Source: an uncultured Gammaproteobacteria bacterium
GTDB lineage: Bacteria > Patescibacteriota > Patescibacteriia > UBA9934 > CAZDDW01
NCBI GenBank assembly: GCA_965231015.1
Contig: OZ246408.1
Location: forward strand, 211,755 to 275,754
Direction: 5' to 3'
Length of the DNA stretch: 64,000 nt
Below are positions 7,322-56,583 of this stretch, piece after piece. The notes beneath the pieces are model-generated. The model had not been told where the DNA came from, searched no databases, and saw only the letters and a list, made by a program, of their open reading frames with translations. The number at the start of each line of letters is the position of its first letter. Position 1 is the first letter of the stretch. A program made the translations under genes and the position numbers.

Positions 7322-7366
7322 GGGTAACCACAAGGGTTACCCCTACATTTGTGATACAATGTTTCA

Positions 7367-37290: not shown

Positions 37291-37299
37291 TAAACTATT

Positions 37300-39111: not shown

Positions 39112-39123
39112 TAGAATACACTC

Positions 39124-39552
39124 ATGGATCAGTTTGTGGTTCCACAATTTATCGACGTTGAAGACAAGATTATCGGGCCTGTTTCGACCCGACAGTTTAT
39201 TTTAATGCTCTTTCCATTGTTAATTGGAGCGCTTTTCTGGAAACTTTTTACCTTGATGTATTTCATTATTTTTATCATTCCGGTCCTGATTATTTTCGGA
39301 TTACTGGCTTTTTTCAAGATCAACGGTATGCCGTTACACTTTTTCTTGTTAAATTTGATACAAAGTTTGCGCAAGCCGCGACTCCGTGTTTGGGACAAGT
39401 CTTTAACGGATGCTGAGTTAAGAGAAAGAATAAAGAAAGAAGAAGCTCCACCTCCACCTGCTCCATTACGTAAAGAACCAATTAGCTCAAGCCGTTTACA
39501 CGAGTTGACGTTGGTTGTGAACACCGGTGGAGTGTATCAACCTGAAGAATAA
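39124..39552 (+). CDS. PrgI/TcpE-family small membrane protein (VirB3 analogue)
   Basis: VVPQFIDVEDKIIGPVSTRQFILMLFP matches the PrgI-family N-terminus; 2 TM; directly precedes VirB4. Confidence 0.55.
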   Translation: MDQFVVPQFIDVEDKIIGPVSTRQFILMLFPLLIGALFWKLFTLMYFIIFIIPVLIIFGLLAFFKINGMPLHFFLLNLIQSLRKPRLRVWDKSLTDAELRERIKKEEAPPPPAPLRKEPISSSRLHELTLVVNTGGVYQPEE

Positions 39553-39554
39553 TT

Positions 39555-40235
39555 ATGGCCAAGAAAAAATTAGCAAAACCAAAACCAGGACCTGCTACCC
39601 AACGTTATCTTGATATTTCCGAGGTCCGTGAGGATGTGGTCGTGATGAAGGATGGAACTATGCGAGCCGTGATTTTGGTTTCCAGCATTAACTTCGCCTT
39701 AAAGTCAGAAGATGAACAAATTGCCATTGTCCAGGCTTACATGTCTTTTTTGAATGGTTTAGATTATCCCCTGCAGGTTGTGGTGCAATCACGACGCATG
39801 AACATTGACTCGTATCTGACTTCCTTAAGAGAGAGATCTCGCGAAACTCTGAACGAAGCCTTGCGTGGGCAAATCAATGATTATCTGAGCTTTATTGAAG
39901 AATTAGTTACTTTAGGAGAGGTAATGCAAAAGCAGTTTTTTGTGGTCGTGCCATTTGATCCGACAACCGACAAGAAACGTAATTTTTGGCAGCGTTTAAG
40001 CGCGGCTGTTTCACCCGCTGTGCGAATTAAACTAAAGGACAAAGAGTTCAAAGAACGTCGGGATGATCTATTACGTCGCGCTGATTTGACGCTTGGCCAG
40101 CTAACGAGTATGGGTCTTTCCGGAACAGTGCTTGATACCCAAGGATTGATTGAACTTTATTACACAGTTTATAATCCTGACGTTTTTGATAAGGAGCGCA
40201 TGGTTGATTTAAACAAATTGAGAGTTGAACAATAA
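39555..40235 (+). CDS. VirB4/TraC-like N-terminal domain encoded as a separate ORF
   Basis: YLDISEVREDVVVMKDGTMRAVILVSSINFALKSEDEQIAIVQAYMSFLNGLDYPLQVVVQS is the typical Gram-positive VirB4 N-terminus; ends 2 nt before the next ATG. Confidence 0.55.
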   Translation: MAKKKLAKPKPGPATQRYLDISEVREDVVVMKDGTMRAVILVSSINFALKSEDEQIAIVQAYMSFLNGLDYPLQVVVQSRRMNIDSYLTSLRERSRETLNEALRGQINDYLSFIEELVTLGEVMQKQFFVVVPFDPTTDKKRNFWQRLSAAVSPAVRIKLKDKEFKERRDDLLRRADLTLGQLTSMGLSGTVLDTQGLIELYYTVYNPDVFDKERMVDLNKLRVEQ

Positions 40236-40237
40236 TT

Positions 40238-42166
40238 ATGGCCATTGAATTAGGAAAAATTGGTAAGGCTACTCCGGCCCCACCGCCCAAAGAACAAAAA
40301 CCGCCATCAAAAGAAAAGCAACAGGCGGCTGAAGAGAGAAAATCTCTTGAGGAAGAGAGGATTTATGCCAAGGGTGTGACTTCAGTGCGTGACTTGGTGG
40401 CTCCGGCTTCTTTTGAAGTATTCCCAACCTATCTGAGATTAAGCGGGGTTTATTTACGTACTCTGTTTGTGGTTAATTATCCACGCTACATTAGTTTAGG
40501 TTGGTCAGCGCCGATTATCAACCTTAACAACACCATGGACATAGCCATGTTTTTCTACCCGGTCAAGTCAGAAATCATTTTGAAACAATTGCGTAAGAAA
40601 GTCGGAGTGCTTGAAGCGGGAATCATGACGGATGCGGAAAAAGGAAAGCCACGTGACCCGATCAGGGAAACGGCCTTGCGCGACATTGAAAAATTACGAG
40701 ACGATTTAACACAGGGTATTGAACACTTTTTCCAGTTTGCTTTTTATATAACCATTTACGCCTCAAGTGAGGATGATCTTGAAAAGAAAACTGAAGAAAT
40801 TGAATCGATCTTTGGATCTAAGTTGATCTATTCCAAGAAAGGTTTTTATCAGGCTGAACAAGGGTTTAATTCAACCCTGCCTATTGGCAATGATGAGCTC
40901 ATGATCAGCTTTAACATGAATACCTCACCGATTGCCTCCTCTTTTCCTTTTATTAGCTCAGACCTGACTTCGGATAACGGAATTTTGTATGGAATTAACC
41001 GGCATAATAACAGTTTGATTTTGTTCGAACGGTTTAGTTTGCAAAATGCTAACTTTGTGGTTTTTGCCACTTCAGGTGCCGGAAAGAGTTATGCTATCAA
41101 GCTTGAAATTTTACGCTCTCTCATGCTGGGAGTGGACGTAATTGTGATTGATCCGGAAATGGAGTACAAACGGTTGTCCGACGCTGTGGGTGGTACCTAC
41201 ATCAACATTTCTTTGGCATCTGAATCTAAGGTGAACCCATTTGACCTTCCGCGACCAACCGGGGAGGGGGTTAAGGTAGATGATATTATTCGTTCCGCGG
41301 TTATCACTCTCAAAGGTCTTCTCAAAATCATGATCGGAATGCCGGTGGGAGAACAGGGAAAGCTTGGTTTTACTCCGGAGGAGGATTCGCTGTTGGATCG
41401 AGCCTTGTTAGAAACATATGCCAAAAAAGACATCACGGCCGATTTGGTGGATCTAACCAATATTGAACCACCGACCATGCAGGATTTGCAGGATATTTTA
41501 GAGGGAATGGAAGGAACAGAAAATTTGGTTGCTCGACTCAAAAAATATACAGAAGGTACTTTTTCCGGATTGATCAATTCTCCAACCACCGTTGAGATGA
41601 ATAATCAGCTTGTTACTTTCTCAGTCCGCGATTTGGAGGACGAATTAAGGCCAACCGCGATTTATACCATCGTTAACTACGTTTGGAACGTGGTGCGAAG
41701 TGAACGAAAGAAGCGAATTCTCGTAATTGACGAGGCCTGGTGGTTGATGCAGCACGAAGACTCAGCTAAGTTTATTTTCGCTCTTGTTAAACGTTGTCGT
41801 AAGTATTACCTCGGAGTAACCACCATTACCCAGGACGTCAACGACTTCCTTCGTTCCCCGTACGGTCAGGCTATTGTGACGAACTCAGCGCTCCAGCTAT
41901 TAATGAAGCAGTCTCCGGCCGGAGTTGATATTGTGCAAAAGACATTCAATCTGACTGACAGTGAAAAATATCTCTTGCTAGAATCCGGGGTGGGAGAAGG
42001 TATTTTCTTTGCCGGCCCAAAACATGCCGCAATTAAAGTGGTTGCTTCCTATACCGAGGATCAGATCATTACCACAGATCCACGACAACTATTAGAGATA
42101 GAAAAAGAAAAGCAGGAGTTGGAAGAAGAGCTGGCCAAGCAAGAGGGAGCTGAATCATCAACTTAA
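40238..42166 (+). CDS. VirB4/TraC-like conjugative ATPase (middle plus ATPase domains)
   Basis: Walker A ATSGAGKSYAIK, Walker B ILVIDEAWWLM, motif VTTITQDV. Confidence 0.8.
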   Translation: MAIELGKIGKATPAPPPKEQKPPSKEKQQAAEERKSLEEERIYAKGVTSVRDLVAPASFEVFPTYLRLSGVYLRTLFVVNYPRYISLGWSAPIINLNNTMDIAMFFYPVKSEIILKQLRKKVGVLEAGIMTDAEKGKPRDPIRETALRDIEKLRDDLTQGIEHFFQFAFYITIYASSEDDLEKKTEEIESIFGSKLIYSKKGFYQAEQGFNSTLPIGNDELMISFNMNTSPIASSFPFISSDLTSDNGILYGINRHNNSLILFERFSLQNANFVVFATSGAGKSYAIKLEILRSLMLGVDVIVIDPEMEYKRLSDAVGGTYINISLASESKVNPFDLPRPTGEGVKVDDIIRSAVITLKGLLKIMIGMPVGEQGKLGFTPEEDSLLDRALLETYAKKDITADLVDLTNIEPPTMQDLQDILEGMEGTENLVARLKKYTEGTFSGLINSPTTVEMNNQLVTFSVRDLEDELRPTAIYTIVNYVWNVVRSERKKRILVIDEAWWLMQHEDSAKFIFALVKRCRKYYLGVTTITQDVNDFLRSPYGQAIVTNSALQLLMKQSPAGVDIVQKTFNLTDSEKYLLLESGVGEGIFFAGPKHAAIKVVASYTEDQIITTDPRQLLEIEKEKQELEEELAKQEGAESST

Positions 42167-42176
42167 CAATAAATAT

Positions 42177-42740
42177 ATGAGCCGACGCATCAAAATAATT
42201 TTAGCTATTCTGATTATAGTGTTGATATTATTAGCGTTGTTTTTATTGTGGTGGAATATTTGGCGACCCCAACCAGCTCCGACCACTGTTGTAGTTGTTG
42301 AAACCGAAGAGGAGGAGGTTAGCTCACCGTTTGCAATTCCGCCGATCGCGGAGTTGGATCAACGTACCGACGAAGAAATTTCTGTGGAAACTCTGGCTAA
42401 AACATTTGCTGAACGCTATGGTAGTTATTCTAACGAAAGTAATTTTGCTAATTTAGATGATTTGGAACCATTGATGACAGATAGTTTAGCCAGTGAATTG
42501 GCTGTAATGGTTGCTAATACAGATATCTCAGACATGTATTATGGAATTACTACGCAAGTAGTATCAATGAACATTATCAGCATTGATGAAACATCCGGAA
42601 CCGCTTCAATTAGTGTTTTAACACAACGTGAAGAAGCCGTTGGGGGCCCAACCAATACTGAAGTTAGTTACGAAACATTGGTTTTAGACATGGTGAAAGT
42701 TAGTGGAGTGTGGAAAGTAGACGGTGTAACATGGCAATAA
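42177..42740 (+). CDS. bitopic membrane protein, possible VirB8-like (NTF2-like) component
   Basis: Single N-terminal TM, 150-aa extracytoplasmic domain ending …VKVSGVWKVDGVTWQ; position after VirB4. Confidence 0.3.
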   Translation: MSRRIKIILAILIIVLILLALFLLWWNIWRPQPAPTTVVVVETEEEEVSSPFAIPPIAELDQRTDEEISVETLAKTFAERYGSYSNESNFANLDDLEPLMTDSLASELAVMVANTDISDMYYGITTQVVSMNIISIDETSGTASISVLTQREEAVGGPTNTEVSYETLVLDMVKVSGVWKVDGVTWQ

Positions 42741-43468
42741 AAAGTGTTCAGACATTTTTCCGATCAAATAAGGCCGCGCTCGACGCGGCTCTTAAAGTCG
42801 CGTTTGATGCTGTTTTTCCTGAATTTTGTGTGGTTTGTAAAAAAGAGGGCTCACAAATATGCGAGAGTTGTCTTTTACAAGCTCGGGTTAAGGTTTTGCA
42901 CGAGCGGTGCCCATTTTGCGAACGGGTCACCGGAAGCGGTTCTGTTTGTCGACATTGTGCCAGGTTTGAGAGTTTAGATGGAGCCATTTCGGTGTCCCAA
43001 TATGCTGAACCTGCTGTGCGTGGGCTCATTAAGAATTGGAAGTATGCCAGTGACACACGAGCGCAAGAAGAGTTGGCTAAACTGGTTCGGCGGGTCTATT
43101 TGGAAAATTTTTTACCGGACTTGCCGTGGGTAATTGTGCCGGCCGGTTTGCATCGTGCCCGAGCCAATGAGCGAGGTTTTGACCAAGCATACGAATTAGC
43201 TCAAATTTTTTCGACTCAAGCTGAATGGCCGTTGCTAGATTGTTTGCGTCGAGTTAAAAACAGTCTTCCCCAGGCACGAGCCGGCCATACAAGAAAAACC
43301 CCGGGCGAGCTACGCGGGTTGTATCAAGTAATTTGTGCTGTCCCAGAGCATGTTTTGCTGGTTGACGATGTTTTGACCACCGGAGCCACCCTTGACGCAG
43401 CGGCTTACGCTTTGAAGCGGTCTGGAGCGGAAAATGTGTGGGCATTGACAATGGCCCGAGGAACATAG
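42731..43468 (+). CDS. comFC: ComF-family protein (ComFC/GntX; zinc finger plus PRTase domain)
   Basis: Four-Cys N-terminus (CVVC…CESC, CPFC…CRHC) and PRTase motif LLVDDVLTTGATL. Confidence 0.75.
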   Translation: MAIKSVQTFFRSNKAALDAALKVAFDAVFPEFCVVCKKEGSQICESCLLQARVKVLHERCPFCERVTGSGSVCRHCARFESLDGAISVSQYAEPAVRGLIKNWKYASDTRAQEELAKLVRRVYLENFLPDLPWVIVPAGLHRARANERGFDQAYELAQIFSTQAEWPLLDCLRRVKNSLPQARAGHTRKTPGELRGLYQVICAVPEHVLLVDDVLTTGATLDAAAYALKRSGAENVWALTMARGT

Positions 43469-43982: not shown

Positions 43983-44072
<90 letters not shown>

Positions 44073-44120
44073 GTTTTCTTTTATTGGAGCTAAAAACAGG
44101 CTTTAGGCCTATTTTCAACT

Positions 44121-44210
<90 letters not shown>

Positions 44211-45091: not shown

Positions 45092-47143
45092 ATGATTTTT
45101 CTCGACAACAAAGTAACAACTTTACCTGGAATTGGGCCGGTAGTGGCCAAGGATTTTAAGAAACTTGAAATTATCACCATTCGAGATCTTTTGTTGTATT
45201 TTCCGTTTCGGTATGAAGATTTGTCAAAAGTTAGCTCGATTGAGGATTTGGTCCCCGATGAAGTAGCGACCGTGCAGGGTCGGGTGGTAAATATGAAAGC
45301 GCGGCGTTCGTCTCGGAAACGGATGATGCTGACCGAGGGAATCGTGGAGGATGATACTGGTCGAATAAAAGTTGTCTGGTTTAATCAGCCATACTTGGCT
45401 AAGAGTTTTCGTCCCGGAATCCAGGTGTCATTATCTGGGCGGGTTGATGATAAATATGGTTTGTCACTTGTGAATCCGATTTATGAGATTTTGAAGTCGA
45501 ACGAGACCGTGCATACGGGTCGCATCGTTCCCGTGTATCCGCTTACCGGATCGTTAACTGGCAAACGGCTTCGGAACGCGATTCATACGTCTTTGAAAGC
45601 GGCAGGACAAATGGAGGACTGGTTACCCGATGAGTTGCTCGACAACGAGGACTTTTTAGATTTACCAACCTCGATTAGAACGATTCATTATCCGAGTGTC
45701 CTAGAAGAGCTCGAAGCGGCTATCCGACGGATGAAGTTTGATGAACTGTTTTTGCATCAACTAATGTTTGCTCGGGCTCGTGAGGAACAAGCAAGCTTGC
45801 CAGCCCATGCAATGAATAGAGATAAGAAGGCCGAAAATAGGTTTAAGAAATCGTTTCCGTTTGATTTAACCAAGGCCCAGGATCGCTCAGTGGACGAGAT
45901 TCTTAATGATCTTACTCATGACAATCCCATGAACCGATTACTCGAAGGAGACGTTGGTTCAGGTAAGAGTGCGGTAGCGGCGTGTGCTTTGGAAGCTTGT
46001 GCCCGAGCAATGTTTCAGGCAGCATATTTAGCCCCGACCGAGATATTGGCCAAGCAACAGTATGAAGAAATGAAAAAGGTGCTATCTGACTATCGAGTTG
46101 CTTTGCTCACTAGATCAGAATTTCGAATCTCAGATTCAGATCAAGTATCCAAGGATGAAATAAAAGATGAGTTGAGCTCGGGTAAAATTGATGTTGTAGT
46201 AGCAACCCATGCATTACTCCAAGATGGATACAAGTTTTCAAAACTTGGTCTACTCGTGATTGATGAGCAGCACCGGTTTGGGGTTAAGCAACGTCAGGAG
46301 TTGATTGCGCGATCAGGTGATACTGCACCGCATTTGCTTTCAATGTCAGCCACGCCAATTCCTCGTTCGCTCGCCTTGTCGGTTTACGGGGACTTAGATC
46401 TATCAATTTTGGATGAGCTTCCCGCAGGGCGAAAACCAATCGATACTAAGATTGTGACCAGTAAAAACATGTCGAGCGCCATCAAGCTCATGGATGTCTC
46501 GATTAAAAATGGTCAGCAGGTTTACGCGGTATGTCCTTTGATCGATCCATCCGACAAACTTGGAGCTACTTCTGTAACTGAGTTTTCGGACGAATTGAAA
46601 TCTGGACCGCTCAAGAAGCACCGCATCGAGATTTTGCATGGCAAGCTCAAAACCGCAGATAAGCAGGATGTAATTGATCGGTTTGTGGCCGGAGCAATCG
46701 ACATCCTGGTCTCGACCACTGTGGTTGAAGTCGGGGTGAACGTCCCAAATGCCACAGTGATGTATATCGAGGGGGCTGATCGGTTCGGGTTGGCACAGTT
46801 GCACCAGCTCCGCGGTCGGGTGGGACGGTCAGATTTGAAATCGTTCTGTCTTTTGCATACCGAATCGTCCTCGGGAAAAGCACCCGAGCGTTTAGAGGCC
46901 ATGGTAAAAAGCCAAGATGGTTTTGAGTTGGCTGAGAAAGATCTCGAACTTCGCGGGGCAGGGAATATTTTTGGCACCGCTCAATCTGGTTTTGCTGACT
47001 TTAAACTCGCGACTTTGGCTGACGTGGACATAATGAAAAAAGCCCGGGATTGGGCTCAAAAAGTAATGAATAAAGGTTTGAAGAAGTACCCTGGAATATC
47101 AGATCGACTGGAAGCAGAATATCACGAAGTTCATTTTGAATAA
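45092..47143 (+). CDS. recG: ATP-dependent DNA helicase RecG
   Basis: N-terminal wedge domain; helicase motifs GDVGSGKS, DEQHRFG, TATPIPRSL, HQLRGRVGR. Confidence 0.85.
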   Translation: MIFLDNKVTTLPGIGPVVAKDFKKLEIITIRDLLLYFPFRYEDLSKVSSIEDLVPDEVATVQGRVVNMKARRSSRKRMMLTEGIVEDDTGRIKVVWFNQPYLAKSFRPGIQVSLSGRVDDKYGLSLVNPIYEILKSNETVHTGRIVPVYPLTGSLTGKRLRNAIHTSLKAAGQMEDWLPDELLDNEDFLDLPTSIRTIHYPSVLEELEAAIRRMKFDELFLHQLMFARAREEQASLPAHAMNRDKKAENRFKKSFPFDLTKAQDRSVDEILNDLTHDNPMNRLLEGDVGSGKSAVAACALEACARAMFQAAYLAPTEILAKQQYEEMKKVLSDYRVALLTRSEFRISDSDQVSKDEIKDELSSGKIDVVVATHALLQDGYKFSKLGLLVIDEQHRFGVKQRQELIARSGDTAPHLLSMSATPIPRSLALSVYGDLDLSILDELPAGRKPIDTKIVTSKNMSSAIKLMDVSIKNGQQVYAVCPLIDPSDKLGATSVTEFSDELKSGPLKKHRIEILHGKLKTADKQDVIDRFVAGAIDILVSTTVVEVGVNVPNATVMYIEGADRFGLAQLHQLRGRVGRSDLKSFCLLHTESSSGKAPERLEAMVKSQDGFELAEKDLELRGAGNIFGTAQSGFADFKLATLADVDIMKKARDWAQKVMNKGLKKYPGISDRLEAEYHEVHFE

Positions 47144-48460
47144 TTAAAGTTCGGAAACAGTTTTTATGGCTCGGGTTTCAAAATCCGGGATTTTTGTTTT
47201 TGTTCGTTCTGGAATCCAGACTGCGTTCATACCAAGTCGAGCAGCTTCTTTGAGTCGACGTTCAGCAAAAGACACACTCCGCACTTCACCACCCAAACCA
47301 ACCTCACCAAAAATAATGGTTCCAGGTTCGACTTGCTGATTTTTTACCGCTCCAACAATAGCCGCAGCTACTGCCAGGTCGGCGGCCGGTTCGTCTAAGC
47401 TCAGTCCACCAATCACGTTAATGAATACGTCTGACTCACTAAGTTTTAATCCGGCTCGTTTAGATAATATGGCGCAGAGCATCTGTAGCCGGTTGGTGTC
47501 GAACCCAGAAGCCTTACGCACCGGAGTTCCATAAAAAGATTTATCAACTAAAGCCTGAACTTCAACAAGGAAGACTCGTGACCCCTCGACAGTGGCAGTG
47601 ACGACTGAACCCGGAGAGTTGCTACGCTCGGCTAAAAATCGTTCGGATGGATTTTCAATGGCGACCAAGCCGAGTTCATTCATTTCAAACACGCCAATCT
47701 CATCGGCAGAACCAAATCGGTTTTTGGTGGCGCGTAGAATACGCGTGGCATGCACAGGGTCGCCTTCTAAACTTAAAACCACGTCCACCAAATGTTCAAG
47801 AGTCTTGGGTCCGGCCACAGATCCGTCTTTAGTTACTTGTCCAACAATCAAAATCGGTAGGTCATTTTTTTTGGCGAGCTCTACGAGCATAGCTGTGGCT
47901 GCCCGGACCATGTTAGGCAAACCAGCCGTACTTTCGATCTCACTCGAGGTCAATGTTTGAGCTGAATCAACAATGAGTAGAGCCGGCATGGCTTTTTGAG
48001 CGGTAGCCACGACTCGTCCGACATCGGTTTCTCCAAGGTAGGCGATTTGGTCGGGTTTTATTGAGAGCCGCTGCAAACGTCCGGCCAATTGTCCGGCTGA
48101 CTCTTCACCGGAAGCATATATTATTTGTCCGGACATCTGGCCGGCAATTTGAGCAACGAGCGTTGACTTACCGATTCCCGGTTCACCGGCAATTAAAACT
48201 ACGGCTCCGGGCATAATTCCGCCTCCAAGAACACGATCTACTTCAGAAATTCCGGTCGCAGATCTGACTTGTGAGCTCGAGTCAATGGTCAAGGATTCCA
48301 GATCGCCGGGCGAATAGCCATTCGCTCCTACGCCTTTTTTCTTCTTCAAAGACAAAGCCGGTGCGGAATCATCCTCCCGCACCGTGCCCCAGGCCCCACA
48401 TTCGGTACATCGCCCGGCCCACTTAGCAAATTGTGCGTCACATTTTGAACAACAGAACAT
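47144..48460 (-). CDS. radA: DNA repair protein RadA/Sms
   Basis: N-terminal C4 zinc finger CSKCDAQFAKWAGRCTECGAW; RecA-like Walker A GEPGIGKST; KNRFG motif; Lon-like C-terminal domain. Confidence 0.85.
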   Translation of the reverse strand: MFCCSKCDAQFAKWAGRCTECGAWGTVREDDSAPALSLKKKKGVGANGYSPGDLESLTIDSSSQVRSATGISEVDRVLGGGIMPGAVVLIAGEPGIGKSTLVAQIAGQMSGQIIYASGEESAGQLAGRLQRLSIKPDQIAYLGETDVGRVVATAQKAMPALLIVDSAQTLTSSEIESTAGLPNMVRAATAMLVELAKKNDLPILIVGQVTKDGSVAGPKTLEHLVDVVLSLEGDPVHATRILRATKNRFGSADEIGVFEMNELGLVAIENPSERFLAERSNSPGSVVTATVEGSRVFLVEVQALVDKSFYGTPVRKASGFDTNRLQMLCAILSKRAGLKLSESDVFINVIGGLSLDEPAADLAVAAAIVGAVKNQQVEPGTIIFGEVGLGGEVRSVSFAERRLKEAARLGMNAVWIPERTKTKIPDFETRAIKTVSEL

Positions 48461-48463
48461 AAG

Positions 48464-49786
48464 CTAATTACATGGTGGAGCGGTATAACATGATTGAGTA
48501 GTGTTGTTTCCCGGTGTTGTTTGGAAATGCCAAATTTCTCCAGTGTAACGCAACCAACCGGCACTGTACATAATTTCTGCCAGTAAACGAACTGCTTCCG
48601 GATCAGCACTTGATTGACTACTATAGGAAACATTCCAAGAAAGATCTCCATCGCTGTCGCGGTATTTGATATCGACTGCAGTACCGGTTCCGTGAGCAGA
48701 AGTGCCTGGCCAAGCCACGGCTGAAGGAACTCCGCTCATATTTTTACAAGCCAATTCAAGTTGTCTGGCCAATGATCGGTAGGTTCCTATCACTACCAAG
48801 GTGACATTTTCTTCGCGTGCTCGATCTGCAGCTTGCAACAAAGCATCCAACGCGTCAGGGGTTAAGTAATGACCGGCCGAGGCTTCGAGTCCTGGGTAAT
48901 CCGTTGGCACAGATTCAAGCTCACTTGGACTGGTCATGCCTTCAGTTTTTAGACCCGGAACAAGTGCTTCTAAAGCATCAGTATCGGTTCCGTTAGCTGT
49001 ATCGTTGCAAAAATCTCGGCACTCATCGTGGGTGCTACACAATTTTGAGGCTCCGGAAGAATAGGTGGCGTCATATTCCTCTTCGTTTTGGATGGGTTGA
49101 AAGGGAACATTTCTTACAGACAGGGTTTCAAAACTGGTTAAGCCAGGCGAGACAGTGTTTAAGATAACGTAACTTCCAAGCAAAATAACAAAACCGATTA
49201 CAGCCGACCTGATGCGTTCTTTAGCCTTTTGTACCTCCCCGGTGCCCTTACCGATCATGTACTGAACCCCACCGATCATAATCACCACGGTGGCCACAAT
49301 TACCCCAGCCCCAATCAACCATGTGTACCAAGCGTTAACATATTCACCCAGCAGATTGATTTTTAAGTTGTCACCCTCTTGTAAAATTTCAGAAAAACTG
49401 AAGTTGGGAATCTCAACGTTTAAGATAGGGATAATCGGCGGGGCGAGCGGAGGTGCTTCTTCTGTGATTTTGTTTAGTGCGACTAGAGCAGCATCAGCTT
49501 GGTCATTAGTGTATTCACATGCTGCTTCTTGTTCATCTAGATCAGCTTGTTGGGGCCATAAATAAGTTAAAGGGTCATACTTGTCTCCGTAATAGGTTTG
49601 ACAAATGCTTTTACATTCAGCATCGTCTGAAATATTTTGTTGTGTTTTTATGGATAAAGGAAAACACTGAAGAACCTCCTGGTCATTAACATAACAGAAA
49701 CATTGGCTGGAATCATAAGCAAAAACAAAAGCCGGTAAAATGATTCCTGTCAGCAGGATTAGACCGATGATGAATTTATTCTTCAT
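48464..49786 (-). CDS. secreted Cys-rich protein fusing a VirB2/TrbC pilin-like membrane hairpin to a C-terminal M15 (VanY-like D,D-carboxypeptidase) domain
   Basis: Signal peptide; WLIGAGVIVATVVIMIGGVQYMIGKGTGEVQKAKERIRSAVIGFVILLGSYVIL (two hydrophobic helices around a charged loop); M15 motifs TYRSLARQ, SAHGTGTAVDI, EIWHF. Confidence 0.55.
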   Translation of the reverse strand: MKNKFIIGLILLTGIILPAFVFAYDSSQCFCYVNDQEVLQCFPLSIKTQQNISDDAECKSICQTYYGDKYDPLTYLWPQQADLDEQEAACEYTNDQADAALVALNKITEEAPPLAPPIIPILNVEIPNFSFSEILQEGDNLKINLLGEYVNAWYTWLIGAGVIVATVVIMIGGVQYMIGKGTGEVQKAKERIRSAVIGFVILLGSYVILNTVSPGLTSFETLSVRNVPFQPIQNEEEYDATYSSGASKLCSTHDECRDFCNDTANGTDTDALEALVPGLKTEGMTSPSELESVPTDYPGLEASAGHYLTPDALDALLQAADRAREENVTLVVIGTYRSLARQLELACKNMSGVPSAVAWPGTSAHGTGTAVDIKYRDSDGDLSWNVSYSSQSSADPEAVRLLAEIMYSAGWLRYTGEIWHFQTTPGNNTTQSCYTAPPCN

Positions 49787-50441
49787 AACGAGTCAGTTCA
49801 AGTAATAATTCACGGACGCGTAATTCGAGTTCAGTTGTCGTCATAGAGCCGGTGTAAGAGAATTCATTGATGAAGATGGTTGGAGTAGCGACTAGATTCA
49901 AACGTAGAGCTTCTTCATAAGTGCGTTGTACAAGGGGCAAAGTTTCATTGTTTTCGTAACACTCTGAAAAAGCCTCTCTGTCAAGTTCCAGATAGTCAGC
50001 TAAGCTGTAAAAAAAGTTACGGCTGATTTGATTTTGATTTGCGTACAAAAGGTCATGGTATTCCCAAAATTTACCCTGGTTGCCCGCGCAGTATGAAGCT
50101 ACAGCGGCCGGAGTAGCCATTTCATTGGCTCCATCGTTCGGGACGGCTTTGTAAATATGCCGAACATCGTTAGGTAATAGCTGTTGAATGTAGAGAATAG
50201 ATTCAGCCATTTCTTGGCAAGCCGAACAAGTAAAATCGGTATATTCAACAATAGTGATGGTGGCGTCAGTTGGACCACGAGACGGATCAATGTAGGTGAT
50301 CACCGGTTCGCTAAGGATTGTCTGATCCTCTTCTGAATCATTAGAAGTTTGAGGTGGGCGAGTGGCTATGTAGAAACTAGCCAAGACTAAACCGGTTAAA
50401 ATCAGTACAGCTACCCAGGCAATAATGCGTTTGTGTCCCAT
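49776..50441 (-). CDS. DsbA-like thiol:disulfide oxidoreductase, membrane anchored
   Basis: N-terminal TM; thioredoxin CxxC motif FTCSACQ. Confidence 0.65.
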   Translation of the reverse strand: MGHKRIIAWVAVLILTGLVLASFYIATRPPQTSNDSEEDQTILSEPVITYIDPSRGPTDATITIVEYTDFTCSACQEMAESILYIQQLLPNDVRHIYKAVPNDGANEMATPAAVASYCAGNQGKFWEYHDLLYANQNQISRNFFYSLADYLELDREAFSECYENNETLPLVQRTYEEALRLNLVATPTIFINEFSYTGSMTTTELELRVRELLLELTRYEE

Positions 50442-50442
50442 A

Positions 50443-51669
50443 TTAATTAAGTCTGATCATTTTTAAGACTCCGCTAGCGTTAGTGTAATAAAGAACTGAA
50501 CCATCATCAGAAACGGTTAAGTTGCTCATGCTGTCATTACTTTCTGGGATGGCAAGCAGGCTGTTAGTTCCCGTGTTCAGATTGACCTCGTAGACATAGT
50601 CATAGGTGCTGTTGGCTAGTTCGGGTTGCAATCCTGAATTTGATGGCAGGTTTTGTGGCACAGCACAAATGACAGTATCGTTATCGATAAAAGTGCATTT
50701 ATTGACCCAGGTTTGCAAGCCAAGATTTTGGCGGTTGTTGCCGATATTGTCGCCATCACCATCAGTGACCCAAAGATTTGGTTGATAATTACTTGTTTCT
50801 CCGGATACTGAGTATAGGATTTTATCGCCTCGGGGTGACCAGATTGATTCAAAACCAAGTCCTTCCACAATTAAACCTTTGTAGTTCTCCTCGTTTTTAC
50901 CGATTGGTAAAATCATGTTTCGAGAAAATCCGCTTTGTGTTGGACCGGTGTTTGAAAAGGCTACTACCTGATCATTCGGAGACCAGTTTACTTGTACTTT
51001 GTCCTCGTTCTGACCAAGTGCGGCAATGGTTTCCGTGCGCGTACCATCTTCACTTGTGATTACGAGCCAACGGTTATTTGGATCAGTTCCCAAACTTTTT
51101 GCAATTATTTCACTACTGTTCGGACTGAAATCAAAATCCTCCCAGTGTTCTGGTAGGGTGACCTGATTTCCGGTGTTAAAGTTGTAAACAATGTTAGACC
51201 CGTCCGGGAATTCCAAAATCGCCTTTTCTCCTTCGCTAGACCAGGTAACGTTTTCTACCTCCGGAAATGAAGTTTGACTAATTGTAGAAACGGTTCCGTC
51301 CTCGTTAATTTTGTAAAACAATCCATCATGTTCGTTGTAAAAATTTACACTGTCACCATCCGGATTGATGTTGGGAGAAGAGATGGCTCCAGCACTAAGC
51401 GAGGTAGTGGCCGTTAAACCACCATCAGCAACATCTGAAACCGGCAGGCCTGTCCCAGCTCCGTCTTCAGTTGGAGTGATGGTCGTTGGGACTCCTTCTT
51501 GAGCAGTTGGAAAAGTTCCTGTTCCAACACCTTCTTCCTCTGTTTCTGTTTCTTCGTCCGGTGGGCGTACATCCCCACGAAAAAAGACAATATACAGAGC
51601 AGCACCGATTACAATGGTTATTACCACGAAAAGTATAGCGTATAAAATTCTTTTTGTTCGTTCATTCAT
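50443..51669 (-). CDS. membrane-anchored TolB-like beta-propeller (PD40/WD40-like repeat) protein
   Basis: N-terminal TM; repeated WS[PS]xG motifs (WSSEGEKA, FSPNSSEI, WSPNDQVVAF, WSPRGDKILYS). Confidence 0.5.
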   Translation of the reverse strand: MNERTKRILYAILFVVITIVIGAALYIVFFRGDVRPPDEETETEEEGVGTGTFPTAQEGVPTTITPTEDGAGTGLPVSDVADGGLTATTSLSAGAISSPNINPDGDSVNFYNEHDGLFYKINEDGTVSTISQTSFPEVENVTWSSEGEKAILEFPDGSNIVYNFNTGNQVTLPEHWEDFDFSPNSSEIIAKSLGTDPNNRWLVITSEDGTRTETIAALGQNEDKVQVNWSPNDQVVAFSNTGPTQSGFSRNMILPIGKNEENYKGLIVEGLGFESIWSPRGDKILYSVSGETSNYQPNLWVTDGDGDNIGNNRQNLGLQTWVNKCTFIDNDTVICAVPQNLPSNSGLQPELANSTYDYVYEVNLNTGTNSLLAIPESNDSMSNLTVSDDGSVLYYTNASGVLKMIRLN

Positions 51670-51674
51670 ATGGG

Positions 51675-52532
51675 TTATAAGGCAATTTGGCCAACAAGGT
51701 TTAAAAGGGTCATACGAAGGTCATGGGGAAGAATTTGGGTGGCCGCCTCGTAGGGGTTTGAAAAAACAACCGCTACTACCATTCCCATGGCCCCCATGAA
51801 AGTCATAATAACTAGGGCTGCTCCAATTATAGCAAATCCGATGGCCATTTGGGGAAGTTTGTATTCAGGAACCAATTTAGCGATAATCCCCATGAAGCCT
51901 CGAGCATCTTTAAAGATGAGCGTCCTCATAAAACGGATAACCTGCCAGATGGCATTGGCAATGGTGTCAAGCCAGGCCATCCAAGCACTGGAACTCGTTG
52001 TGCCCTCAGTCCCTTCAAGCCCGGAAGCAACATAAGATTTTGTGGTTTCCATCTGCTCCTCTTTACCCTTGGCCTCAGAAATTTGACTTCGGCGTGACTG
52101 TTCAGCGGCTGTAGTGGCACCAACCTGTGCCTGCATGTTAGCTAGGTCTTGTTCAGCCTGATCTTGTTCGAGTTGAGCCTGTTCTACCGCTGCAGCTTGT
52201 TCAAGTCGGGCCTGGTTTTGAGAGTACTCCAGTTCTTCACGGCGAGCCAATTCTTGCTCATTTCGACCCTGAACATCTTGATAGCCAGATGCTTTGATTG
52301 GAGCACGTTCGGCAAAACGTCGACCGGCCTCTTCCACACGAGCAGAAGCGCGACCAGGAGCCAACCGTGCTTCCCGTAAACGCAAATTAGCTTCAAGCAT
52401 TATTTTTTGAGCCTTCTCGGCCGGGCGTTTTCCTGCGGCTTCAACTCTGGCTGCAGCTTGGGATGAGCCAATGATATTTTGCGCACGACGCTGTTCTTTG
52501 GGAGTTAAGCCAACTGCCATATCAGGAAACAA
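51675..52532 (-). CDS. coiled-coil protein with C-terminal double TM, hypothetical
   Basis: Gln/Glu/Ala-rich heptad-like N-terminal part and two C-terminal hydrophobic helices; overlaps the clpC stop by 11 nt. Confidence 0.35.
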   Translation of the reverse strand: MFPDMAVGLTPKEQRRAQNIIGSSQAAARVEAAGKRPAEKAQKIMLEANLRLREARLAPGRASARVEEAGRRFAERAPIKASGYQDVQGRNEQELARREELEYSQNQARLEQAAAVEQAQLEQDQAEQDLANMQAQVGATTAAEQSRRSQISEAKGKEEQMETTKSYVASGLEGTEGTTSSSAWMAWLDTIANAIWQVIRFMRTLIFKDARGFMGIIAKLVPEYKLPQMAIGFAIIGAALVIMTFMGAMGMVVAVVFSNPYEAATQILPHDLRMTLLNLVGQIAL

Positions 52533-55014
52533 TTATTTCATTATTTCTGACTGAAACCATGATCTCGTTTTTTAACGTTTTTTTCAAAAGGCGTTCAGCG
52601 ATCTTGGCTTCGATTACTTGGTTCATTTGTCGGCGAATTTCTCTCGCTCCAACCTTGCTATGAGCGGCTTGGTCAGCCAAAGTGTTGTAAACTTCTTCGT
52701 TGAAATTAAGTTTGATTCTTTTTGGAGTAAGCCGTTTACTAAGTTCTCGAGCCTGTTTTTTTGCAATGTCTTTCATGACACCATGTTCCAGCTTGTTAAA
52801 TAGGCTGATGTAGTCGACTCGATTGATGAGCTCCGGACGGAAACGTTCTTCAAGTTCGGTTTTGATATCACTAATCAAATTATCCTGGCTCATGCTGGTT
52901 CCACCTTCAAAACCAATCCCTCCGGATTCGAAACGTTCTAGTCCTACGTTTGAAGTGAGAACTACAATTGTGTTGCGGAAATTAATAACTCGGCCGGTGG
53001 CATCGGTGATTTCACCATTTTCTAAAATTTGTAAAAGCAGATTTTGTACGTCCGGATGAGCTTTTTCCAGCTCGTCAAAAAGAACCACTGAATAGGGTCG
53101 CTCTTTGACCCGGTCAGTCAGCCGGGCTCCTTCTCGGTAGCCAACGTACCCAGCCGGGGAACCAATGAGTTTTGAAACAGTAAAGCCTTCAGCATATTCG
53201 GACATGTCAAGCCGCACCAGGGCATCGGCTTCTTGAAAGACTTCGCGTGCCAGGGCTTTGGCCAGCTCTGTTTTACCAACCCCGGATGGACCAAGAAACA
53301 AGAAAGAAGCGGTTGGACGTTCCGGATGATTAACGCCGGTCTTGCTACGCCGCACAGCGTCCGCAACTGCTTTAATGGCTTCGGTTTGACCAAGAACATG
53401 ATTTGAGAGTTTGCGTTCTAGTTTAGCAAGACGTTTTTCTTCGCCGCCGGTCATTTGACTAAGTGGAATTCCGGTCATGCGGGAAAGCACCTGGGCAATA
53501 TCGGTTTCAGTAACCGTGCCGTATGCCGCTTTAGCCCTTGGCTTGTCTTTTAAGTTTGAGAGTCGTTTTACAAGAATTTCTTCGTCTTCTTTGGCATGAA
53601 TGGCGTCTACAAAACGCTCCTCAATAACCGCCAACCGTTTGCGTTCGCGGATTTCGCGCAGCTCCTGTTCCAGTTCAAGCCTTTTACGGTCATCACGAGT
53701 ACCGGAGCCTGCAACTCGGCAGGCCGCAGCGGCTTCGTCAATTAAATCAATAGACTTGTCTGGTTGGTTTTTTCCGGGCAAGTACCGGTTTGAAAGTCTG
53801 ACCGCATTTTTAAGGGCTCGTTTGCTGATTTTGACCCGATGAAATTTTTCGTAGTTTTCGGCAATACCTCGTAAGATTTTATTAGTATCCTCATCGTTCG
53901 GCTCATTTATATGAACGGTTTGAAAGCGTCTTTCCAAAGCCGCATCCGGTTCGATGTTTTTTTTAAATTCGGCCGGTGTAGTAGCACCAATACAGCGAAT
54001 CTCACCACGCGCTAAAGCCGGTTTTAAAATATTGGCCGCATCCATGGATCCGGAACTGGAGCCGGCCCCGATAATGGTATGTACTTCATCTATAAATAAA
54101 ATAATGTTTGGGTTTGCTTTAACCTCATCAATTACCTGTCGCAACCGTTCTTCAAACTCACCTCGATACATGGTGCCAGCCACCACCAGCGTCATATCAA
54201 GAGCCATAATTCGTCGACCGTCTAGCACCGGCGGCACATTATGCTCCATAATTTTCTTGGCCAAGCCCTCTACGATAGCCGTTTTACCTACACCCGGTTC
54301 ACCCAAAAGAACCGGATTGTTTTTACTACGGCGGCATAAAATTTCCATTAACCGTTGGATTTCATTTTTCCGTCCGATCACAGGATCGATATTTTTTTGT
54401 TCCTGGCCACTGGTTAAATCTCGAGCAAAAAAATCTAGGGCCGGAGTTTTGGCTTCTCTGAATTCATCAGTACCAGTTTCATCATTTTCTGTAGTAAGAA
54501 TATCCAGTCCAACAGAGTCGTCAGTATCAATGGTTTCGGCAAATTCAGGAAACTTGCTGGTGCTTTTTAAAACCACGGCAATTTGTTTTTGTAAAATTGA
54601 TAAATCTACTTTTTCTTTCATCAAAAATTCGTGGACGCGAGTATTTTTAACCTGCAAGAGTCCGGCCAACAAGTGTTCTGTCCCCACATAGCGATGCTCA
54701 TAAATATTTGCCGTCAGTACCGCTTTTTCAATGATCCGTTTGCAAGAGTCTGACAGAACCGGAGATGGATTTATTTTTTTGGCTCGGTTTTGCCCATCCG
54801 TGGCAGTAGCGCCAACTAGCAGGCGAAGGCGTTCAGGTTTTATTTTAGCCTTAGTGATGATGTCGGCACCAATGCTGCCTTTTTGAGTGCCTAAAGCCCA
54901 AAGCAGGTGTTCCGGTTGAACTTCTTTTTGTTCCGCTTCCACAGCCAAAACCAGAGCGCGAGTGAGCACGTTTTTCAAATGGGTCGTGAACTTGTCAATG
55001 ATATTGGGTTGCAT
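52522..55014 (-). CDS. clpC: ClpC/ClpB-family AAA+ chaperone ATPase (two AAA modules, short middle domain)
   Basis: Clp_N repeats; Walker A GEPGVGKT and GPSGVGKT; Walker B IILFIDEVH and VVLFDELEKA. Confidence 0.85.
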   Translation of the reverse strand: MQPNIIDKFTTHLKNVLTRALVLAVEAEQKEVQPEHLLWALGTQKGSIGADIITKAKIKPERLRLLVGATATDGQNRAKKINPSPVLSDSCKRIIEKAVLTANIYEHRYVGTEHLLAGLLQVKNTRVHEFLMKEKVDLSILQKQIAVVLKSTSKFPEFAETIDTDDSVGLDILTTENDETGTDEFREAKTPALDFFARDLTSGQEQKNIDPVIGRKNEIQRLMEILCRRSKNNPVLLGEPGVGKTAIVEGLAKKIMEHNVPPVLDGRRIMALDMTLVVAGTMYRGEFEERLRQVIDEVKANPNIILFIDEVHTIIGAGSSSGSMDAANILKPALARGEIRCIGATTPAEFKKNIEPDAALERRFQTVHINEPNDEDTNKILRGIAENYEKFHRVKISKRALKNAVRLSNRYLPGKNQPDKSIDLIDEAAAACRVAGSGTRDDRKRLELEQELREIRERKRLAVIEERFVDAIHAKEDEEILVKRLSNLKDKPRAKAAYGTVTETDIAQVLSRMTGIPLSQMTGGEEKRLAKLERKLSNHVLGQTEAIKAVADAVRRSKTGVNHPERPTASFLFLGPSGVGKTELAKALAREVFQEADALVRLDMSEYAEGFTVSKLIGSPAGYVGYREGARLTDRVKERPYSVVLFDELEKAHPDVQNLLLQILENGEITDATGRVINFRNTIVVLTSNVGLERFESGGIGFEGGTSMSQDNLISDIKTELEERFRPELINRVDYISLFNKLEHGVMKDIAKKQARELSKRLTPKRIKLNFNEEVYNTLADQAAHSKVGAREIRRQMNQVIEAKIAERLLKKTLKNEIMVSVRNNEIIVS

Positions 55015-55119
55015 GTTAAATTTTCAATTGTACAATCTCCAATTTTCATTGAATGATCAATTTGATAATTGTCAATTGTAAATTCATTCGAAAATTGAGC
55101 CTTAAACATTGAAAATATC

Positions 55120-56013
55120 TTACACTCCCATTGATCGAAGCTTTTTTATTCGATCTTCGATCGGTGGGTGAGTAGAAAAAAGCGAATTAAATTTTTTCTT
55201 GGTTTTGTGTGGATCAAACGGGTTGGCCAAGAACAGGTGGGCAGTGGCGTGGTTGGCTTTTTTGAGAGGTCGATCAATAGCCGCGATTTTTTCAAGTGCT
55301 CCGGCTAGTCCGTCCGGGTAGCGGGTCAACAAAGCGGCTGAAGCGTCAGCCATGTATTCTCGAGAACGGGAAACTGCCAATTTGATGAGTTCAGCAAACA
55401 AGGGGGAGAGAATTGCTAAAGCAATTCCGATAATGAAGATGATTAATCCGGCTTGACCACCACCGCGGTCACGCCGTCCACCAAAGAAAAATCCGCGCCG
55501 CATGATGTCGGAGAGCAGAAGCACGACTCCAACCAATACCACAACAAGAGTCATAACGCGGATATCTAAGTTTTTAATGTGCGACATTTCATGGGCTAAG
55601 ACACCCTGCAGTTCATTCTTGTCAAGGATTTGTAAGAGTCCTGTGGTCACGGCAATGCTGGCGTGCTCTGGGTCTCGTCCGGTTGCAAATGCATTTGGGG
55701 AAGGGTCGTTTATGAGATAGAGTTTTGGTGTTGATATACCTGCTGTGATAGCCAGGTTTTCTACCAAGTTGTAAAGGACGGCGTTATCACGTTTACTGAT
55801 CTGCCGAGCTCCAGCCGTAGCCAGGGTAACCGTGTCACCTTTAAAATATCCAACCAGAATCATGACAATGGCTATGATACCGGCCAGAACTAGTCCGAAA
55901 CTTGGTTCTGCAAAGTAATAGCCAAGGCTCCATCCAAGAACCATAATCACGATTGCAAAAATTGCGATCATCAAAATGGTCTTACGTTTGTTGCGCGTGA
56001 TCTCTTGGTACAT
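55120..56013 (-). CDS. htpX: zinc metalloprotease HtpX (M48)
   Basis: HEMSHIKNLD (HExxH) and TM topology typical of HtpX. Confidence 0.85.
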   Translation of the reverse strand: MYQEITRNKRKTILMIAIFAIVIMVLGWSLGYYFAEPSFGLVLAGIIAIVMILVGYFKGDTVTLATAGARQISKRDNAVLYNLVENLAITAGISTPKLYLINDPSPNAFATGRDPEHASIAVTTGLLQILDKNELQGVLAHEMSHIKNLDIRVMTLVVVLVGVVLLLSDIMRRGFFFGGRRDRGGGQAGLIIFIIGIALAILSPLFAELIKLAVSRSREYMADASAALLTRYPDGLAGALEKIAAIDRPLKKANHATAHLFLANPFDPHKTKKKFNSLFSTHPPIEDRIKKLRSMGV

Positions 56014-56025
56014 GACCGCGCGTAA

Positions 56026-56583
56026 TTAGAATTTAACTTCTGGTGCTTCGTGAACGCTATCAGGGGCGTCAAAGAATTCGTATTTCTTAAATCCAAGCAT
56101 TCCGCCAATCAGGTTGGTTGGTAAAACTTGAATTTTGGTATTGAAGTCACGGACATTGCCGTTATAAAAGCGGCGAGCGGCCTGAATTTTGTCTTCTGCA
56201 TCAACCAGCTCTTCTTGCAGGTGTTTGAAATTCCCAGCGGCTTGAAGAGCTGGGTAATTTTCTGCTACTGCAAACAAGCTCTTCAAAGTGTCGCTAAGCA
56301 TGTTTTCCGCTTTAGACTGCTCGGCCGGAGTTTTGGCCTGCATGGCAGAGGCACGAGCTTCGGTTACTTTGGTAAATACTCCTTCCTCATGTTTGGCATA
56401 ACCTTTGACAGTATTCACCAGATTTGGGATAAGGTCATAGCGTCGTTTCAGCTGGACTTCAATGTCAGACCAGGCTTCATCCACGCGGTTGCGCAAGCTA
56501 ATTAAGCCGTTATATGTTAAAATAAGCCAGATCGCAACTACGGCCAGCACCGCAAGAACGATCCACAAAGGGAGTAATGGCAT
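56026..56583 (-). CDS. lemA: LemA-family protein
   Basis: N-terminal TM plus the LemA core (NGLISLRNRVDEAWSDIEVQLKRRYDLIPNLV). Confidence 0.8.
   Translation of the reverse strand: MPLLPLWIVLAVLAVVAIWLILTYNGLISLRNRVDEAWSDIEVQLKRRYDLIPNLVNTVKGYAKHEEGVFTKVTEARASAMQAKTPAEQSKAENMLSDTLKSLFAVAENYPALQAAGNFKHLQEELVDAEDKIQAARRFYNGNVRDFNTKIQVLPTNLIGGMLGFKKYEFFDAPDSVHEAPEVKF

Follow-up and report, generated by a model that had tools for sequence, protein, structure and literature searches.

The six-gene cluster and its products

The stretch analysed here, which comprises 64,000 nt of contig OZ246408.1 (assembly GCA_965231015.1) and is called the window at its full length of 64 kb, carries on its minus strand a cluster of six genes from clpC to radA, one of which joins a hairpin from the pilin family of type IV secretion systems (T4SS) to a VanY-type peptidase domain. 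An earlier note on this DNA had described the cluster as an operon whose composition would make sense if it supported the assembly of a T4SS-like apparatus encoded nearby. In the direction of reading, the genes encode a ClpC-like ATPase (52522-55014, 830 aa), a membrane protein designated X (51675-52520, 281 aa from the gene caller's ATG, as in public gene calls; an upstream TTG at 52532 would yield 285 aa), a beta-propeller protein (50443-51669, 408 aa), a DsbA-like oxidoreductase (49776-50441, 221 aa), the T4SS_pilin::VanY fusion protein (48464-49786, 440 aa), and RadA (47144-48460, 438 aa), with successive junctions of +1 (or -11), +5, +1, -11, and +3 nt. The six open reading frames (ORFs) and the range of their junctions (-11 to +5 nt) were as the earlier note had given them, and family scans upheld its labels for ClpC, the membrane protein X, DsbA, the VirB2-like/M15 fusion, and RadA; its sixth label, TolB-like, was not sustained, as described below.

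The fusion protein consists of a signal peptide, an N-terminal domain with six Cys residues, a conserved P-x-L-x-V-x-I-P motif, the pilin-like hairpin (aa 145-212; 49151-49354, minus strand), and a second six-Cys region formed by the M15/LAS domain, of which aa 283-423 (48518-48940, minus strand) constitute the catalytic M15/VanY part. The hairpin passed the cut-off of PF18895 (T4SS_pilin; 40.3 bits, cut-off 26.6) and remained below that of NF045849, a pilin-like family of Mycoplasma integrative and conjugative elements (26.9 bits, cut-off 40). Some relatives reached E = 6.7e-8 on TrbC. Hydrophobic segments were found at aa 5-23, 156-174, and 192-210, and the AlphaFold2 (AF2) model placed helices at aa 145-178 and 182-212 with moderate-to-low confidence. 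The catalytic domain passed the cut-off of VanY (PF02557; 43.3 bits, cut-off 25), its zinc-ligand motifs SAHGTGTAVD and EIWH were kept among full-length homologues, and in alignment it was most similar to Bacillus subtilis YodJ/LdcB (4ox3). Only this domain of the model gave meaningful fold matches, the top Foldseek matches of the low-confidence structure being VanX, LdcB, and VanY; a likeness of the model to the archaeal conjugative pilin 8dft was not significant (E = 6.4) and was discarded. The fusion is the sole pilin-domain ORF of the window, and at 440 aa it is far larger than the approximately 100 aa expected of a hairpin-only VirB2/TrbC pilin. Its incorporation into a pilus is presumed, as is the substrate of its predicted enzyme.

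The DsbA-like protein encoded directly upstream of the fusion matched Thioredoxin_4 (80.7 bits, cut-off 23.2) and DSBA (28.9 bits, cut-off 25.6), has the active-site motif C72-S-A-C75 and an N-terminal transmembrane (TM) anchor at aa 6-24, which would place its catalytic domain on the outside of the cell, and has B. subtilis BdbD (3eu3) as its best solved relative. No re-oxidizing partner of the DsbB, BdbC, or VKOR type was noticed among the scanned proteins of the window, in which no dedicated search for one was made. The obvious substrates would be the adjacent fusion protein with its 12 Cys residues (family median 14) and an invariant Cys pair of the propeller.

The propeller protein scored only 19.4 bits against the TolB model TIGR02800, the cut-off of which is 343, and its N-terminus is formed by a TM helix and a disordered linker, on the basis of which its identification as TolB was rejected; moreover, no tol or pal genes lie near the cluster. 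The AF2 model (mean confidence, pLDDT, 82.6) consisted of a helix at aa 3-30, a disordered stretch at aa 32-81, and an all-beta part at aa 85-408, which in Foldseek searches matched seven-bladed WD40 and DPP-IV propellers with E of about 1e-10. The modelled protein is thus best described as a generic membrane-anchored beta-propeller that has only its predicted fold in common with TolB. Its family counts at least 439 members, all named 'hypothetical' and all in Uhrbacteria or Patescibacteria, and Cys325 and Cys335 are invariant. Protein X, located between ClpC and the propeller, matched no Pfam or NCBIfam family; it is composed of a polar N-terminal part rich in Gln, Glu, and Ala and a C-terminal TM segment at aa 235-253.

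The ClpC-like protein displayed the full class I Hsp100 architecture (Pfam Clp_N, AAA, AAA_lid_9, AAA_2, and ClpB_D2-small), and its best solved relative was B. subtilis ClpC/MecB, matched over the full length with 641 bits and ranked above ClpB or ClpA. Its D2 domain contains the sequence GGIGFEGG, taken on visual inspection for a ClpP-docking loop of the IGF type; at this position the relatives carry MGF or IGF. RadA passed the TIGR00416 equivalog (475 bits, cut-off 403), matched Zn_ribbon_LapB, AAA_25, ChlI, and Lon_C, and has zinc-ribbon Cys residues at positions 4, 7, 18, and 21 as well as a visible KNRFG motif.

The co-directional run extends beyond the six genes, beginning upstream of clpC with lemA (56026-56583, minus strand; Pfam LemA, 202 bits) and the gene for an HtpX-like M48 membrane protease (55120-56013, minus strand; Pfam Peptidase_M48, 117 bits) with four predicted TM helices. 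The 105-nt spacer between htpX and clpC (55015-55119, minus strand) contains promoter-like hexamers, overlapped by two copies of TACAATTGA(C/A)AATT that are 48 nt apart. As a conserved operator this repeat was rejected, its window-wide count being at chance level and 34 of 35 related spacers lacking it. Promoters or terminators between the genes, which the earlier note had named as features that would speak against an operon, received no support, as the corresponding consensus sites inside the cluster were no commoner than in shuffled sequence. The strongest hairpin (48384-48359) was dismissed as an internal terminator, because it falls within the radA coding sequence and has a poor T-tract. 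At the downstream end, radA and recG are convergent and their stop codons abut (47144 and 47143) with no intergenic base between them, and each gene has its sole terminator-like hairpin within the other's 3' coding end (47057-47040, minus strand; 47170-47189, plus strand).

Gene order and the pilin slot in related genomes

The earlier note had proposed to look for this gene order next to VirB4 in other reduced-genome bacteria, and in related genomes the order was indeed found in many loci. To collect relatives, metagenomes were scanned with the propeller as anchor and the best 80 of 291 were kept, so that the sample is biased to close relatives; neighbours were scored with phmmer, and the counts below refer to loci with enough flanking sequence. 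The order lemA-htpX-clpC-X-propeller-dsbA-pilin (one to three genes)-radA, followed by convergent recG, recurred in dozens of Uhrbacteria-like contigs (40-60% protein identity; 40-70% to the proteins of the window across the loci with this order), and the named relatives of the window sequence were Candidatus Uhrbacteria and other Patescibacteria. In contigs with homologues of the fusion at 46-49% identity, divergent pheS, rseP, and PGM genes preceded the same cluster, again with recG convergent to it. ClpC was present in 31 of 44 loci, HtpX in 33 of 39, LemA in 33 of 36, DsbA in 50 of 63, at least one pilin gene in 43 of 48, at least two in 12 of 39, RadA in 27 of 31, and RecG in 24 of 25. 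Median gaps in the relatives were 3 nt between propeller and dsbA, 5 nt between the last pilin gene and radA, and 11 nt between htpX and clpC, the last compared with 105 nt in the window. The distance from ClpC to the propeller (median 915 nt in 53 loci) is just filled by protein X, the positional equivalents of which (226-332 aa) share its architecture and almost none of its sequence, homology being detectable only in the closest relative; protein X is fast-evolving. Where the flank sufficed, comF, a homologue of the 187-aa protein of the T4SS-like run, and VirB4 followed recG (e.g. in loci L106, L112, L113, L159, and L167). It is this conservation of gene order, and not the spacing of the genes, that provides the real evidence for the cluster. 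A complete Uhrbacteria-type cluster, with RadA 57% identical, was also present in a record titled 'uncultured Gammaproteobacteria bacterium' (L010, CAYJWY010000006.1), the bin or contig behind which has probably been mislabelled.

The position preceding radA, hereafter the pilin slot, holds one to three paralogues and accounts for all 87 pilin-domain ORFs found in the related loci. The hairpin was retained in the slot proteins, 65 of 68 of which matched PF18895, while their C-terminal domains differed widely: VanY occurred in 12 of the 68, M15 in 11, M15_4 in 7, M23 in 10, NlpC/P60 in 7, a C39-like domain in 4, C70 in 3, SLT in 2, and Glucosaminidase in 1. Most slot proteins were only 21-33% identical overall to the fusion of the window, as against 42-62% for the neighbouring propeller. 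These results identified the pilin slot as a hot-spot of diversification.

When 1.84 billion cluster representatives were searched with the hairpin segment, 12,945 proteins passed E<=1e-3 and 1,243 passed E<=1e-10, and the best 150 matches were mostly 350-600 aa long. Among 110 of these closest representatives, 106 matched PF18895 and about 60% had a recognizable hydrolase domain, the additional domains comprising NlpC/P60 (15), M23 (14), VanY (13), M15_4 (8), C39_2 (7), M15 (6), SLT (5), C70 (4), Amidase_2 (3), 3D (2), and a GDSL lipase (1). As judged from these domain assignments, the fusion belongs to a large modular family of pilin-anchored, predicted wall hydrolases, of which no published description was found in the literature, as far as our incomplete coverage extends. 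Five proteins (P0135, P0136, P0142, P0152, and P0184) contained three or four pilin-domain stretches in a single chain of up to 916 aa.

The Kerfeldbacteria contig L011 has a tight same-strand run that encodes, in this order, a counterpart of the 603-aa protein of the T4SS-like run, PrgI, a TraC-like protein, VirB4, a counterpart of the 187-aa protein, an X-like coiled/TM protein, a pilin-domain protein, the propeller, DsbA, and RadA, with no ClpC. No other single observation speaks as strongly as this one contig for an association of the envelope genes with the T4SS-like genes. Its pilin-domain protein (6997-7890, plus strand; 297 aa) has a Cys-rich C-terminal domain that matched no family, and its gene lies ahead of that for the propeller, not behind dsbA. 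More distant propeller loci showed a different environment, in which the propeller has comF (L155, L161, and L164-L166) or radA-recG (L162) directly behind it and is divergently preceded by type IV pilus genes for PilM, PilB, a PilT-like ATPase, and PilC; in L162 and L163, PilB carries an MshEN domain.

The clpC-radA operon is classical for Bacillus, the order in B. subtilis being ctsR-mcsA-mcsB-clpC-radA-disA. In the window, clpC and radA stand on the same strand and in the same order as in Firmicutes, but four genes (4.06 kb) lie between them. No ctsR, mcsA, or mcsB is present upstream of clpC, where lemA and htpX are found instead, and no disA downstream of radA, where the convergent recG is found instead. 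Regulation by CtsR in the Firmicute style was likewise rejected, the CtsR box being absent upstream of both clpC and lemA and the ctsR and mcsAB genes being missing; in B. subtilis, CtsR controls radA and disA (PMC10633939). Owing to the strong conservation of RadA, a genome scan anchored on radA returned mostly genomes from outside the candidate phyla radiation (CPR), with no more than about six loci from CPR genomes. In its Clostridia/Lachnospiraceae loci (L016, L034-L037, L047, and L056) ClpC lies directly upstream of RadA, in the Proteobacteria loci radA stands alone, and in the Patescibacteria contig L017 a distance of 3 kb, occupied by a methyltransferase-like ORF and an ORF on the opposite strand, separates radA from the clpC upstream of it. 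Since ClpC and RadA adjoin in Clostridia and L017 separates the pair by unrelated genes, clpC-to-radA appears to be the ancestral arrangement, into which the four envelope genes seem to have been inserted. That ClpC and RadA are present in the cluster at least partly by inheritance is the best-supported reading.

Neighbouring genes of the window

The T4SS-like run occupies 34519-42740 on the plus strand and encodes a 923-aa polytopic protein, a 603-aa protein, a PrgI/VirB3-like protein (PrgI, 38 bits, cut-off 27), a 226-aa TrsD/TraC-like protein, VirB4, and a 187-aa bitopic protein. A TraG P-loop match of 92 bits was also obtained in the run. VirB4 was assigned to the CD1110 family (NF045971, 335 bits, cut-off 325). 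It appears to be split (39555-42166, plus strand), the 226-aa ORF aligning, in VirB4 family models, to the N-terminal 100-230 positions and the 642-aa ORF from approximately position 170 onwards. VirB4 is the nearest T4SS-like gene to the cluster, ending about 5 kb from radA on the opposite strand. The run closes with a ComFC-like comF gene (42710-43468, plus strand; DZR_2 and Pribosyltran domains), the product of which reached 81 bits on TIGR00201, below the cut-off of 233.55. Between the comF block and recG (45092-47143, plus strand; RecG_wedge, DEAD, Helicase_C, and RecG_dom3_C) lie two tandem tRNA-Ser genes (TGA and GCT; 43983-44210, minus strand) and a tRNA-Arg gene at 44922 on the plus strand. 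No ORF in the interval 34.5-44.8 kb matched a family of type IV coupling proteins (T4CP/VirD4) or relaxases, in agreement with the published survey of these systems (PMC12102498).

Approximately 600 nt upstream of the T4SS-like genes, a lipoprotein-like secreted Peptidase_M23 of 638 aa with a long poly-Asp linker is encoded on the plus strand (31995-33911). This gene is a compositional outlier (GC about 0.60 against a background of 0.45) and was possibly acquired horizontally; no rRNA or other RNA was found in the GC-rich stretch at 32-34 kb. Further upstream, a giant ORF of 3190 aa (17693-27265, plus strand) gave a weak CBM_4_9 match as its sole Pfam match and probably encodes a huge surface protein, and in a 224-aa ORF ahead of it the similarity to the bacterial TSP3 repeat was weak and remained below threshold.

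Interpretation and comparison with known systems

The four middle genes all encode membrane-anchored or extracytoplasmic proteins and were therefore taken as an envelope module. We read the locus as a conserved mosaic cluster of Uhrbacteria-type ABY1 Patescibacteria in which this module would be accessory to the neighbouring T4SS-like/competence apparatus, an interpretation that we put forward as our leading one while being no more than half convinced of it. In such an arrangement, clpC and radA would represent an old Gram-positive stress/competence pair, preceded by the putative membrane quality-control pair lemA-htpX, and the apparatus would be an MPF-FATA-like DNA translocation system, with VirB3, the split VirB4, ComF, and RecG encoded alongside. 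The signal peptide would export the fusion protein, and the DsbA/BdbD-like enzyme would form disulfides among its 12 Cys residues and within the conserved pair of the propeller. The VirB2-like hairpin might then hold the fusion in the membrane or enter a pilus powered by VirB4, so that the zinc-dependent LAS/M15 peptidase, located outside the cell, could cut peptidoglycan peptide stems and open the wall around the machine, be it the cell's own wall, that of a host, or both. The propeller and protein X might serve as scaffolds, and RadA, together with RecG and ComF, would process the single-stranded DNA moved by the apparatus, whose direction of transport is presumed.

Several observations weigh against this interpretation. 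At 17 of the 39 same-strand junctions of the window (44%) the genes are no more than 5 nt apart, the median gap being 10 nt, and, because close packing is usual here, spacing alone is weak evidence for an operon; the tight junctions from which the earlier note had concluded co-transcription are real, but co-transcription from clpC to radA is presumed. Within the cluster, ClpC is missing from 13 of 44 related loci, DsbA from 13 of 63, and RadA from 4 of 31. The hairpin stays below the cut-off of PF04956 (TrbC/VirB2; 19.6 bits, cut-off 27.9), and the AF2 model of the fusion is poor (pLDDT 61, built on an alignment of 12 sequences only). The envelope genes are contiguous with VirB4 in one contig only, the Kerfeldbacteria contig described above, and in the distant propeller loci neither a pilin fusion nor VirB4 is present within 10 kb. 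Owing to those loci, the constant partners of the propeller are DNA-uptake/recombination genes rather than the T4SS, and the propeller may be tied to competence in general. Loci without an adjacent DsbA still carry pilin proteins with 13-28 Cys residues, so that a comparison of DsbA presence with the cysteine content of the pilin proteins did not discriminate, as DsbA could be encoded elsewhere in those genomes. Finally, the machine may have a wall hydrolase of its own in the secreted M23 peptidase encoded at 31995-33911.

The proposals of the earlier note accordingly held in part. Support of the T4SS by the cluster is favoured by the conserved gene order, by the fusion being the only VirB2-like protein of the window, and by the contiguity in the Kerfeldbacteria contig, but not by ClpC, the TolB label, or the distant propeller loci. 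ClpC as a helper of the T4SS was not borne out: its pairing with RadA is ordinary Firmicute synteny, and, given its absence from those 13 loci, ClpC need not serve the T4SS. The role ascribed to DsbA, the oxidation of Cys-rich secreted components, fits the adjoining 12-Cys secreted fusion, which is the only such component; the T4SS proteins contain 0-1 Cys, and the loci without an adjacent DsbA still have Cys-rich pilin proteins.

The same facts about ClpC and RadA would also be expected if the cluster had no function common to its six genes, clpC and radA being neighbours by descent, unrelated envelope genes having been inserted between them, and the tight spacing merely reflecting a streamlined 1-Mb genome. 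The direct ClpC-RadA adjacency in many Clostridia, the close packing throughout the window, the absence of ClpC, DsbA, or RadA from some related loci, and the unrelated genes separating the pair in L017 all suit this explanation, which we nevertheless regard as unlikely, as the envelope genes move together and rejoin T4SS genes in another arrangement in Kerfeldbacteria, the propeller keeps a comF or radA neighbour in distant lineages, and the pilin domain ties the slot to T4SS-like genes. Still less probable, in our view, is general envelope maintenance by an LdcB-like carboxypeptidase, a general DsbA, the propeller, and the HtpX/ClpC proteases, with the proximity of the T4SS being incidental. 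The best solved relatives are indeed the housekeeping proteins LdcB, BdbD, and ClpC of B. subtilis, and lemA-htpX-clpC are proteostasis genes, but a T4SS pilin domain serves as the anchor of the hydrolase, the slot keeps its linkage with VirB4, comF, recG, and radA in different lineages, and the free exchange of the catalytic domain between unrelated hydrolase folds is a misfit with one housekeeping activity, making this explanation very improbable.

The diversification of the fusions bears instead on which wall is attacked, and suggests a weapon role against the host wall. The fusions might be diversifying effectors that act on or through a T4SS pilus and degrade the peptidoglycan of a host bacterium, as opposed to remodelling the cell's own wall. 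This would account for the one to three tandem paralogues, for at least eight wall-degrading domain types on one conserved anchor, for the low overall identity of the fusions (21-33%, compared with 40-60% for neighbouring genes), and for the family member with a GDSL lipase; it would also accord with the Patescibacteria T4SS, which epibiotic growth requires in the one species tested, Southlakia epibionticum (PMC10633639), and whose role has been termed completely unknown, DNA uptake being put forward as one possibility (PMC11665869). LdcB-type carboxypeptidases, however, usually trim the wall of the cell that makes them; a T4SS of Gram-positive bacteria always requires a hydrolase directed at the producer itself, examples being PrgK, TraG, and CwlT (cited in PMC12102498); and no immunity-like gene was identified beside the fusions in an examination that was not systematic. 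We hold host attack, too, to be improbable. A more elaborate version is an armed T4SS pilus, in which the hairpin would polymerize, the subunits would display interchangeable wall enzymes (M15, M23, NlpC/P60, SLT, amidase, or papain-like) to bore through host peptidoglycan, and host DNA would be imported, as by Helicobacter pylori ComB, for ComF, RadA, and RecG. This version appears to us quite improbable; if true, it would offer a concrete mechanism for the essential and unexplained T4SS of Patescibacteria and for the nucleotide supply of epibionts.

Returning to the envelope module as an accessory of the T4SS-like apparatus, its interest lies in three points. Quinonero-Coronel et al. (2025) reported that the T4SSs of Patescibacteria resemble the MPF-FATA type, often include VirB2-like pilins, and usually have neither a relaxase nor a coupling protein, and that most VirB2-containing genomes have no recognizable VirB1 hydrolase (PMC12102498); a pilin hairpin carrying interchangeable wall enzymes is a possible answer to that missing hydrolase. 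The encoding of the fusions with DsbA, the propeller, ComF, RadA, and RecG points to a testable link between wall breaching and DNA handling, and the locus exhibits the remodelling of an old Gram-positive clpC-radA operon in a reduced genome. The earlier note had known of no described operon of this composition, which is half right. The pairing of clpC with radA is the classical one of Bacillus. T4SS loci of class ABY1 that commonly include comF, recG, and radA have been published (PMC12102498), and RadA and RecG both act in chromosomal transformation of B. subtilis (PMC6755099; PMC5512693), whereas ClpC, LemA/HtpX, the propeller, the DsbA-like gene, and the pilin-hydrolase fusions are unmentioned in PMC12102498, PMC10633639, PMC11665869, PMC6755099, PMC5512693, and PMC10633939. 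The ABY1 T4SS/comF/recG/radA locus is thus already known, and the family of pilin-hydrolase fusions, for which no description was found, is the most interesting element.

Compared with the clpC operon of B. subtilis, the cluster is alike in that clpC is located upstream of radA on the same strand and encodes a protein closest to ClpC/MecB, and differs in the four intervening envelope genes and in lacking ctsR, mcsA, mcsB, disA, and a CtsR box. The DsbA-like protein resembles BdbD of the same organism, which has the competence protein ComGC as a substrate, in being a membrane-associated oxidoreductase of the Thioredoxin_4 type whose locus contains competence and recombination genes; its presumed substrate, in contrast, is a T4SS-type pilin fusion and not a type IV pseudopilin. 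With VirB2/TrbC pilins and with the pilin arrays that are essential in Saccharibacteria (PMC10633639, PMC12857230), the fusions share a signal peptide, two hydrophobic helices, and the arrangement of sequence-divergent paralogues in tandem; of the pilin models, PF18895 is matched above threshold and PF04956 below it. The fusions measure 350-600 aa instead of approximately 100 aa, with a Cys-rich domain at the N-terminus and an enzyme at the C-terminus.

The hydrolases PrgK of pCF10, TraG of pIP501, and CwlT of ICEBs1 (PMC12102498) are similar to the fusions in that they are membrane-anchored, extracytoplasmic, encoded with a monoderm-type T4SS, and composed of modular wall-degrading domains (SLT, M23/LytM, and NlpC/P60-CHAP). 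In the fusions, however, the anchor is a VirB2-like hairpin following a Cys-rich ectodomain and not a single TM helix, the catalytic domain in the window is of the M15/VanY LAS type, and the genes form a variable array of one to three copies. A close parallel is provided by the MPF-FATA-like T4SS loci of ABY1 (PMC12102498), which likewise encode a VirB4 of the monoderm (CD1110) type together with proteins resembling PrgI/VirB3 and VirB2 (PF18895), alongside comF, recG, and radA, and in the vicinity of which, as here, no relaxase or coupling protein is detected; what distinguishes the present locus is that the pilin itself carries the predicted wall hydrolase and is encoded in a separate, convergent putative operon approximately 5 kb from VirB4.

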